Assembly: GCF_017348835.2 (NCBI RefSeq)
Contig: NZ_CP071375.1
DNA: 64,000 nucleotides
Origin: Escherichia coli
Lineage (GTDB): Bacteria; Pseudomonadota; Gammaproteobacteria; Enterobacterales; Enterobacteriaceae
Reading direction: 5' to 3' (one strand)
Program-made: the position numbers and the translations under genes
The notes under the pieces: generated by a model
Told to the model about the DNA's origin: nothing
What the model saw: only the letters and a program-made list of their open reading frames with translations
The model's database searches: none
Shown here: positions 23,007-24,366 of the stretch, in pieces
Position numbering within the stretch: the stretch's first letter is position 1
Layout: the number at the start of each line of letters is the position of its first letter

Positions 23007-23060
23007 TGAACCGCCCCGGAAATCCTGGAGACTAAACTCCCTGAGAAAGAGGTAAACAGG

Positions 23061-23387
23061 ATGACTAAAAATACTCGTTTTTCCCCCGAAGTCCGTCAGC
23101 GGGCGATTCGTATGGTTCTGGAAAGTCAGGATGAATATGACTCACAGTGGGCGGCAATTTGTTCCATTGCCCCAAAGATTGGCTGTACGCCGGAGACTCT
23201 GCGTGTCTGGGTTCGCCAGCATGAGCGGGATACCGGGAGTGGTGATGGTGGACTCACCACCGCTGAACGTCAGCGTCTGAAAGAGCTGGAACGTGAAAAT
23301 CGTGAACTGCGCCGCAGTAACGATATCCTTCGCCAGGCTTCCGCTTATTTTGCGAAGGCGGAGTTCGACCGCCTCTGGAAAAAATAA
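23061..23387 (+). CDS. IS3-family transposase OrfA (HTH DNA-binding, leucine-zipper region)
   Basis: 108-aa [26 protein letters not shown]... typical of IS3-group OrfA. Confidence 0.85.
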
Positions 23388-24274
23388 TGCCACTGCTGGA
23401 TAAGCTGCGTGAGCAGTACGGGGTCGGACCGGTATGCAGCGAACTGCATATTGCCCCGTCAACGTATTACCATTGTCAGCAACAGCGACATCATCCGGAT
23501 AAACGCAGTGCCCGTGCGCAGCACGATGACTGGCTGAAGAAAGAGATACAGCGCGTATACGATGAAAATCACCAGGTATACGGTGTGCGTAAAGTCTGGC
23601 GTCAGTTGTTACGGGAAGGTATCAGAGTGGCCAGATGCACTGTGGCACGTCTCATGGCAGTTATGGGACTTGCCGGTGTTCTCCGGGGTAAAAAGGTCCG
23701 CACTACCGTCAGCCGGAAAGCCGTTGCCGCATGCGACCGCGTAAACCGTCAGTTCGTGGCAGAACGTCCAGACCAGTTGTGGGTGGCTGATTTTACCTGG
23801 GTAAGCACATGGCAGGGCTTCGTTTATGTGGCGTTCATCATTGATGTGTTCGCCGGATACATCGTGGGATGGCAGGTCTCATCATCCATGGAAACAACAT
23901 TCGTGCTGGATGCACTGGAGCAGGCGTTGTGGGCCCGTCGGCCGTCCGGCACAATCCATCACAGTGATAAAGGTTCTCAGTATGTATCGCTGGCCTACAC
24001 GCAGCGGCTTAAGGAAGCCGGATTACTGGCATCAACAGGGAGTACTGGCGACTCGTATGACAACGCGATGGCTGAGAGCATCAATGGTCTTTACAAAGCG
24101 GAGGTAATACACCGTAAGAGCTGGAAAAACCGGACAGAAGTGGAACTGGCCACACTAACGTGGGTGGACTGGTATAACAATCGACGATTGCTGGAAAGGC
24201 TGGGCCATATTCCTCCGGCAGAAGCAGAAAAAGCTTATTATGCTTCCATCGGAAATAATGATCTGGCAGCCTGA
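23387..24274 (+). CDS. IS3-family transposase OrfB (DDE catalytic domain; normally expressed as OrfAB fusion by -1 frameshift)
   Basis: 295-aa ORF overlapping OrfA stop in -1 frame; DDE-type integrase-core features (…HSDKGSQYVS…); A-rich run ggaaaaaataatg at the overlap. Confidence 0.85.
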   Translation: MPLLDKLREQYGVGPVCSELHIAPSTYYHCQQQRHHPDKRSARAQHDDWLKKEIQRVYDENHQVYGVRKVWRQLLREGIRVARCTVARLMAVMGLAGVLRGKKVRTTVSRKAVAACDRVNRQFVAERPDQLWVADFTWVSTWQGFVYVAFIIDVFAGYIVGWQVSSSMETTFVLDALEQALWARRPSGTIHHSDKGSQYVSLAYTQRLKEAGLLASTGSTGDSYDNAMAESINGLYKAEVIHRKSWKNRTEVELATLTWVDWYNNRRLLERLGHIPPAEAEKAYYASIGNNDLAA

Positions 24275-24366
24275 GTTCACAGATAAAACACTCTCCAGGA
24301 AACCCGGGGCGGTTCAGTATAATGCCACTGCATAACTGATTCCCATTTCGTAGAGGCTGTTAACTC

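Follow-up and report, generated by a model that had tools for sequence, protein, structure and literature searches.

An IS629-like element at a probable deletion junction between yghT and the ileX island of porcine Escherichia coli PE164

Homologous recombination between two copies of an insertion sequence (IS) in direct orientation deletes the DNA between them and leaves one IS that carries one half of each target-site duplication. Elements of the IS1, IS26, and Tn3 types produce adjacent deletions by intramolecular replicative transposition. Transposition in the IS3 family, including IS629, follows a copy-out/paste-in route with a circular intermediate, and to our knowledge the intramolecular replicative mechanism of adjacent deletion is not established for elements of this kind. 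The target duplications made by IS629 are 3-4 bp long, and a survey of 47 sites in four genomes of E. coli O157:H7 found matching repeats at only 21 (Rump et al. 2011, PMC3271280). Deletions associated with IS629, including losses of >40 kb adjacent to the element, have been documented (PMC9943667), and repeated mobile elements are also known to give rise to large inversions and rearrangements in E. coli O157:H7 (PMC8743559, PMC7430833).

The locus described here is on the chromosome of PE164, an isolate from a pig in Nanjing (NZ_CP114128.1). The stretch that was analyzed (the window, 64,000 nt) reads along the minus strand of this record, with window position w corresponding to record position 694522 - w. 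It carries an intact 1310-bp IS3-family element of the IS629/IS1203 type at 23007-24316 (+), which starts with TGAACCGCCCCGG, ends with CCGGGGCGGTTCA, and has the following parts:

23007-23031 (+): IRL, the left terminal inverted repeat, from end-to-end comparison with IRR
23061-24274 (+): transposase genes orfA (23061-23387) and orfB (23387-24274), joined by a programmed -1 frameshift
23342-23458 (+): ALIL frameshift-stimulating pseudoknot, Rfam RF01497 (120.3 bits, gathering score 50)
24292-24316 (+): IRR, the right terminal inverted repeat and the end abutting the proposed deletion

The two terminal repeats match at all 13 of their outermost 13 positions and at nine of the following 12. The product of orfA has an HTH_Tnp_1 domain (2.9e-12) and that of orfB an rve DDE domain (1.5e-26), the ALIL pseudoknot spans the overlap between the two frames, and the RefSeq annotation of the element is an IS3-family transposase with a programmed frameshift. 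Features that mark the IS3/IS629/IS1203 group are present, namely a length of ~1.3 kb, inverted repeats of the form 5'-TG...CA-3', two overlapping ORFs with a frameshift, and high nucleotide identity to known copies. Identity was judged against annotated genomic copies, such as the IS1203-family copy of O157:H7. The window copy is indistinguishable from one that strain C7 carries in its ileX island (0/1310 differences), has 99-100% identity to copies in O103:H2 and other strains, and across 1310 bp has 95.9% identity to the O157:H7 copy whose annotation is "IS3-like element IS1203 family"; based on these comparisons the name "IS629-like" is a fair one. Length, termini, domains, the ALIL pseudoknot, and identity to IS629/IS1203 copies therefore bear out the identification of the element in an earlier note that was made from the sequence alone. 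The start given there, 23007, is also correct, but the end, 24317, was one base too far; the right flank that the note quoted, gta, occupies 24317-24319 and is consistent with a true end at 24316.

The sequences that border the element are as follows, a slash marking the junction here and below:

22756-23006 (-): yghT 3' remnant, the last 251 nt of a 693-nt gene of which the 5' 442 nt are missing
23004-23006 (+): left flank CTT, where intact yghT reads GCTT/TACG
24317-24319 (+): right flank GTA, where the retained island DNA begins

The break in yghT falls 442 nt from the start of the gene, where the intact reference reads ...GAAACGCTT/TACGTTCC, and the missing 5' half is nowhere on the PE164 chromosome. 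Entry of the IS into yghT presumably duplicated CTT, and the CTT to the left would be the one copy that remains. The duplication of 3-4 bp that is typical of the IS3 family is lacking around the window copy (CTT vs. GTA), and no duplication of 3-5 bp appeared when the boundaries were shifted by up to ±3 bp. As the first T of the IS is also the next base of yghT, the junction on this side is ambiguous by 1 bp, although no duplication is created by this. The copy of the IS in yejO of O157:H7 was used as a positive control under the same definition of the ends; it reads GGA/IS/GGA, and the presence of GGA on both sides indicates that the approach does detect a normal insertion. Since the absence of a duplication is a property of the insertion event, the assignment of the element to the IS3/IS629 family is unaffected by it. 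The earlier note had made the missing duplication its main claim, and this stands, including against its own caveat that a redefined boundary might reveal a 3-4 bp repeat. Its view that the flanks stem from separate loci, yghT and island DNA, is confirmed by the fact that the two are not contiguous in relatives, and the flanks and the comparator genomes together agree with its proposal that the copy sits at a rearrangement junction rather than at a simple insertion.

The right flank belongs to an island integrated at ileX, of which the window retains the following:

24317-28371 (unstranded): retained integrase-proximal block of the ileX island (annotation and domain search)
24446-26050 (+): 534-aa hypothetical protein, no Pfam match
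26133-26759 (-): 208-aa ORF, annotated as 198 aa, no Pfam match
26859-28175 (-): tyrosine integrase
28372-28418 (+): displaced original 3' 47 nt of tRNA-Ile ileX, the island attR (K-12-type sequence, with nfeF after it)

The position of the 47-nt ileX fragment beside nfeF indicates that the integrase block is in its native place. The idea that the island is integrated the wrong way round was rejected, as direct comparison shows this fragment adjoining nfeF. A 4,155-bp query (the integrase block and ~100 bp beyond) was matched over at least 80% of its length in 427 genomes, and the block adjoins nfeF in all of those inspected. The island runs uninterrupted across the junction point in F2_81, C7, and others (...gattcagcatc/gtataatgcc), and the junction of the IS with the island on the right was found in the PE164 record only, among 5,426 complete genomes. 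A search of the window with ARAGORN returned no tRNA; the functional ileX has a variant 3' end that is supplied by the island. A tandem motif, GGGTCAGGTAATGGGTCAGGTAA, is situated just inside both island ends (window 28223-28245; locus L003 16716-16870) and may be an integrase arm site. The genes for the 534-aa and 208-aa proteins are conserved beside the integrase in hundreds of genomes; in PE164 the IS is 130 bp upstream of the 534-aa gene, whose native upstream region has been replaced.

The origin of the junction can be judged from strain C7, in which 58.1 kb separates the sequences that flank the PE164 IS, their order and orientation being those of PE164. The gene order in C7 is nfeF-integrase block-block D-IS2-IS629-...cah...cbtA-DUF5983-DUF957-DUF4942-yghD-gsp-sslE-glc-...-yghS-yghT-pitB, and with the flanks so arranged a simple deletion bounded by the IS in yghT yields exactly the PE164 structure. 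No match on the PE164 chromosome record was obtained with probes for the yghT 5' half, yghS, glcD, glcB, sslE, and yghD, or with 1.8 kb of island block D, for which the query with its anchor had two places in comparable genomes. These presence/absence queries carried a single-copy anchor, an earlier anchor that included 47 nt of tRNA-Phe having been ambiguous (four places in PE164); the yghT-yghD probes with the anchor found only the anchor place in PE164 and F2_81, and six to eight places in other island-bearing genomes. Two signs of a deletion junction are thus seen, flanks that are separate in C7 while keeping their order and orientation, and absence of the intervening DNA that was tested. 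Chimeric queries for the reciprocal junctions (IRR+CTT+yghT 5' half; island D side+IRL) matched none of the 5,426 complete E. coli genomes. The absent interval, the absence of a reciprocal junction, and the C7 order together point to a deletion scar and not to a reciprocal exchange with a surviving partner. We estimate the probability that the window IS sits at a deletion junction, taking this reading as a whole, at roughly 0.8.

The earlier note had suggested that comparison with the flanks of other copies would find a partner carrying the complementary half-sites. This expectation is not supported, both because the reciprocal junctions are found in 0/5,426 genomes and because the tested flanking DNA is absent from the PE164 chromosome. 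IS629 matches fall at 32 places in the PE164 chromosome record, and flanks were read for the one other copy found nearby (record 767657-768966; L003 32658-33967). It is in direct orientation, has the flanks ATG/IS/CTC with no duplication, and carries neither half-site; it was rejected as the partner on the grounds of its orientation and unrelated flanks. This second copy differs from the window copy by 4 nt and is beside a truncated integrase gene, within a 9.2-kb island remnant (TraG', IS200C, TraI, recombinase) between pheV and a 47-nt tRNA-Phe repeat.

The DNA to the left of the element is part of a larger rearrangement:

1-23006 (unstranded): window portion of the inverted pheV-ileX segment (hyb, yghU, gss, pitB, yghT'), from gene order vs. 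K-12 and F2_81

The annotation was read for window 10000-37500 and the remainder of 1-23006 was assigned by coordinate mapping. The inverted segment is ~92 kb long in PE164 (record 671.5-763.8 kb) and extends past the window. The order in K-12 and F2_81 is pheV...yghD...yghT-pitB...mug-ileX-(island)-nfeF. In PE164 it is nfeF-integrase block-IS-yghT'-pitB...mug-ileX, followed by DUF4942-DUF957-DUF5983'-IS1-TcdA/B-like gene-tRNA-Phe repeat-9.2-kb island remnant-pheV. The hit coordinates show the inverted order in FORC 064, C7, and CD45 as well, and the close relatives F2_81, C3, and Z1323HEC0067 are colinear with K-12. Both inversion junctions are retained in FORC 064. Its nfeF side runs from DUF5983-DUF957-DUF4942 through a 22-nt tRNA-Phe repeat into sequence that matches the K-12 region downstream of pheV exactly, and then into yghD, and on its pheV side a second copy of the end module abuts the TcdA/B block. 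Since these junctions are in inverted island end modules, the inversion in FORC 064 can be attributed to homologous recombination there and not to this IS. The gene order of C7 is that of the inverted arrangement in FORC 064, and the inversion in the PE164 lineage most likely occurred by recombination between the inverted DUF5983-DUF957-DUF4942/tRNA-Phe-repeat end modules of the pheV and ileX islands.

As a result of the inversion, the position of the TcdA/B-bearing island block varies among genomes between ileX and pheV. This block was found in 22 complete genomes. In PE164 its 8.9-kb gene for a TcdA/TcdB glycosyltransferase-domain protein of 2,978 aa is beside ileX (record 754554-763490; L003 19555-28491), flanked by an IS1 that truncates the neighboring DUF5983 gene. 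In FORC 064 yghD directly abuts a truncated pitB (locus L010 21392-22001), with no IS629 at the junction; this loss of yghE-yghT, an independent deletion, suggests that the region is deletion-prone. The recurrent pheV-ileX inversion is a structural polymorphism that can mislead comparisons of synteny, and we consider it a more useful observation than the IS junction.

The junction of yghT with the left end of the IS is common to PE164 and F2_81 alone among the 5,426 complete genomes. F2_81, a pig isolate from Australia, is the nearest relative of PE164, with 100.0% identity over 10 kb of adjacent core (the next best genome has 98.6%). Its IS in yghT (record 784487-785796; locus L002 9008-10317) is flanked as CTT/IS/CAG, again with no duplication, the CAG being pheV-island DNA, and this IRR/CAG junction was in no other genome searched. 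The probe query showed that F2_81 is also without the region from the yghT 5' half to yghD, and its IS bounds a different deletion from that in PE164. Between the two strains the copies at this one site show 14 differences in 1310 positions, beginning at position 141, which, given the near-identical core, indicates that IS copies have exchanged sequence in one lineage or both. The F2_81 copy is a mosaic: positions 141-210 agree with the F2_81 island copy, positions 1127-1151 agree with the second PE164 copy, and six changes at 386-517 are its own.

Based on these comparisons, an IS629-type element would first have entered yghT, in an insertion common to PE164 and F2_81 that presumably duplicated CTT. 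The pheV-ileX segment would then have inverted in the PE164 lineage through the island end modules, putting the yghT 5' half, yghS, glc, sslE, gsp, yghD, and the bulk of the ileX island between IRR and the integrase block. Finally this interval, whose counterpart in C7 is 58.1 kb long, would have been lost, with the intact IRR becoming joined precisely to the island GTA. The placing of the inversion before the deletion is drawn from the comparator strains and not from the PE164 lineage itself, and the history may be less simple than this, as F2_81 has the same left junction in a colinear arrangement with another right flank (CAG). The difference between the right flanks of F2_81 and PE164 implies either that the same IRR end was the site of separate events in the two lineages or that their common history was more complicated.

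The precise joining of a complete IRR to island DNA argues for a process specific to the IS and not for a random break. The most likely route, toward which we lean slightly, is local insertion of IS629 followed by homologous recombination between IS copies. A new IS629 copy would have inserted at the island site in the same direction as the yghT copy, and RecA-type recombination between the 1.3-kb copies would then have excised the interval, leaving one IS with one half of each duplication. Neither of the possible intermediates, yghT::IS629 with both halves of yghT and IS629 at the island GTA site, was found in the 5,426 complete genomes.

An alternative that we take seriously but consider unlikely is an adjacent deletion in one step, in which transposase would direct the IRR of the yghT copy to attack the island site on the same chromosome, there never having been a second copy. 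The circular copy-out intermediate of IS3-family elements does not favor such an event, and the reported IEE-dependent deletions lose the IS, which is kept intact here. Supporting it, however, are the precise joining of the IS end to new DNA, the finding of an island-site IS copy in 0/5,426 genomes, the variable junction at the same IRR end in PE164 and F2_81 with IRL/yghT conserved, and the report of large deletions adjacent to IS629 (PMC9943667). Since the one-step and two-step routes would produce like final structures, they are not separated by sequence alone.

PE164 and F2_81 have each lost the region from the yghT 5' half to yghD (~24 kb, the K-12 length) along with different neighboring island DNA, and in both the loss begins exactly at the IRR end, with the IRL junction fixed. 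It is conceivable, if rather improbable, that the IRR end of yghT::IS629 is a recurrent generator of deletions in one direction. If true, and if these were one-step transposase events, this would be an undescribed activity for copy-out/paste-in elements of the IS3 family.

Reciprocal recombination between the yghT copy and an inverted IS629 at the island site, which would itself have made the large inversion and had its reciprocal junction erased later, we regard as very improbable. It would account for the inversion of the segment from yghT vs. K-12 and F2_81, and for the difference in the body of the IS between PE164 and the same-site copy of F2_81. However, the far end of the inversion is unbroken island sequence that is identical in FORC 064 and C7, and it terminates at the tRNA-Phe repeat and not at an IS629; the only nearby IS629 is direct and has unrelated flanks; and the reciprocal junctions and the DNA expected to carry them are absent. 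The same inversion is found in FORC 064 and C7, which have no IS in yghT, and the FORC 064 junctions are in the island end modules, based on which we rejected an IS-mediated inversion. Least probable of all is a misjoining of contigs through one of the many PE164 copies of IS629, for although there are ~30 IS629-like places in PE164, 1.3-kb repeats can mislead assemblers, and the right junction is unique to one record, such a misjoin would leave the yghT 5' half and island block D elsewhere in the closed chromosome, where both are absent, the left junction is independently present in F2_81, and the overall arrangement is that of three other independent complete genomes.

We therefore return to a deletion bounded by the IS as the reading of this junction, and suggest that the annotation describe an intact copy of the IS629 type that borders a deletion. 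The meaning of the finding beyond the strain is limited: an IS together with island repeats would have removed ~58 kb from a porcine pathogenic E. coli, and with it the glycolate operon and the SslE/type II secretion cluster as well as the greater part of the ileX island. More generally, a missing target duplication can point to a lost interval and not necessarily to a surviving partner copy. The PE164 junction adds a new instance of a phenomenon that is already known and that is an ordinary consequence of insertion sequences; with duplications at 21 of 47 sites in O157:H7 and with deletions and inversions documented, the PE164 case fits known patterns.

The scar in PE164 has the form expected of deletion between direct IS repeats, with one IS left, flanks that are halves of different duplications, and the interval lost, although the second copy is hypothetical here and was in no genome searched. 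Deletions made by IS1, IS26, and Tn3-type elements leave the same scar, in which the IS is kept, there is no duplication, and the loss runs from one end. The deletions in EHEC strains (Ooka 2009; Kusumoto 2011; as cited in PMC9943667) resemble this one in the type of IS and in the loss of tens of kilobases from an IS629 end; in the IEE-dependent events, as they are outlined in that source, the IS is removed with the adjacent DNA, whereas in PE164 the IS is intact and its end precise. The pheV-ileX inversion is like the O157:H7 rearrangements (PMC8743559, PMC7430833) in being a ~90-130 kb inversion between inverted kb-scale repeats of integrated elements and in being polymorphic among close relatives (C3 vs. 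C7; F2_81 vs. PE164), and differs in that the repeats are lambdoid prophages there and island end modules at pheV and ileX here. Finally, copies of IS629 without a duplication are frequent in O157:H7 too (PMC3271280); single events were not reconstructed in that survey, whereas for PE164 both the missing interval and the order before the deletion can be obtained from comparator genomes.
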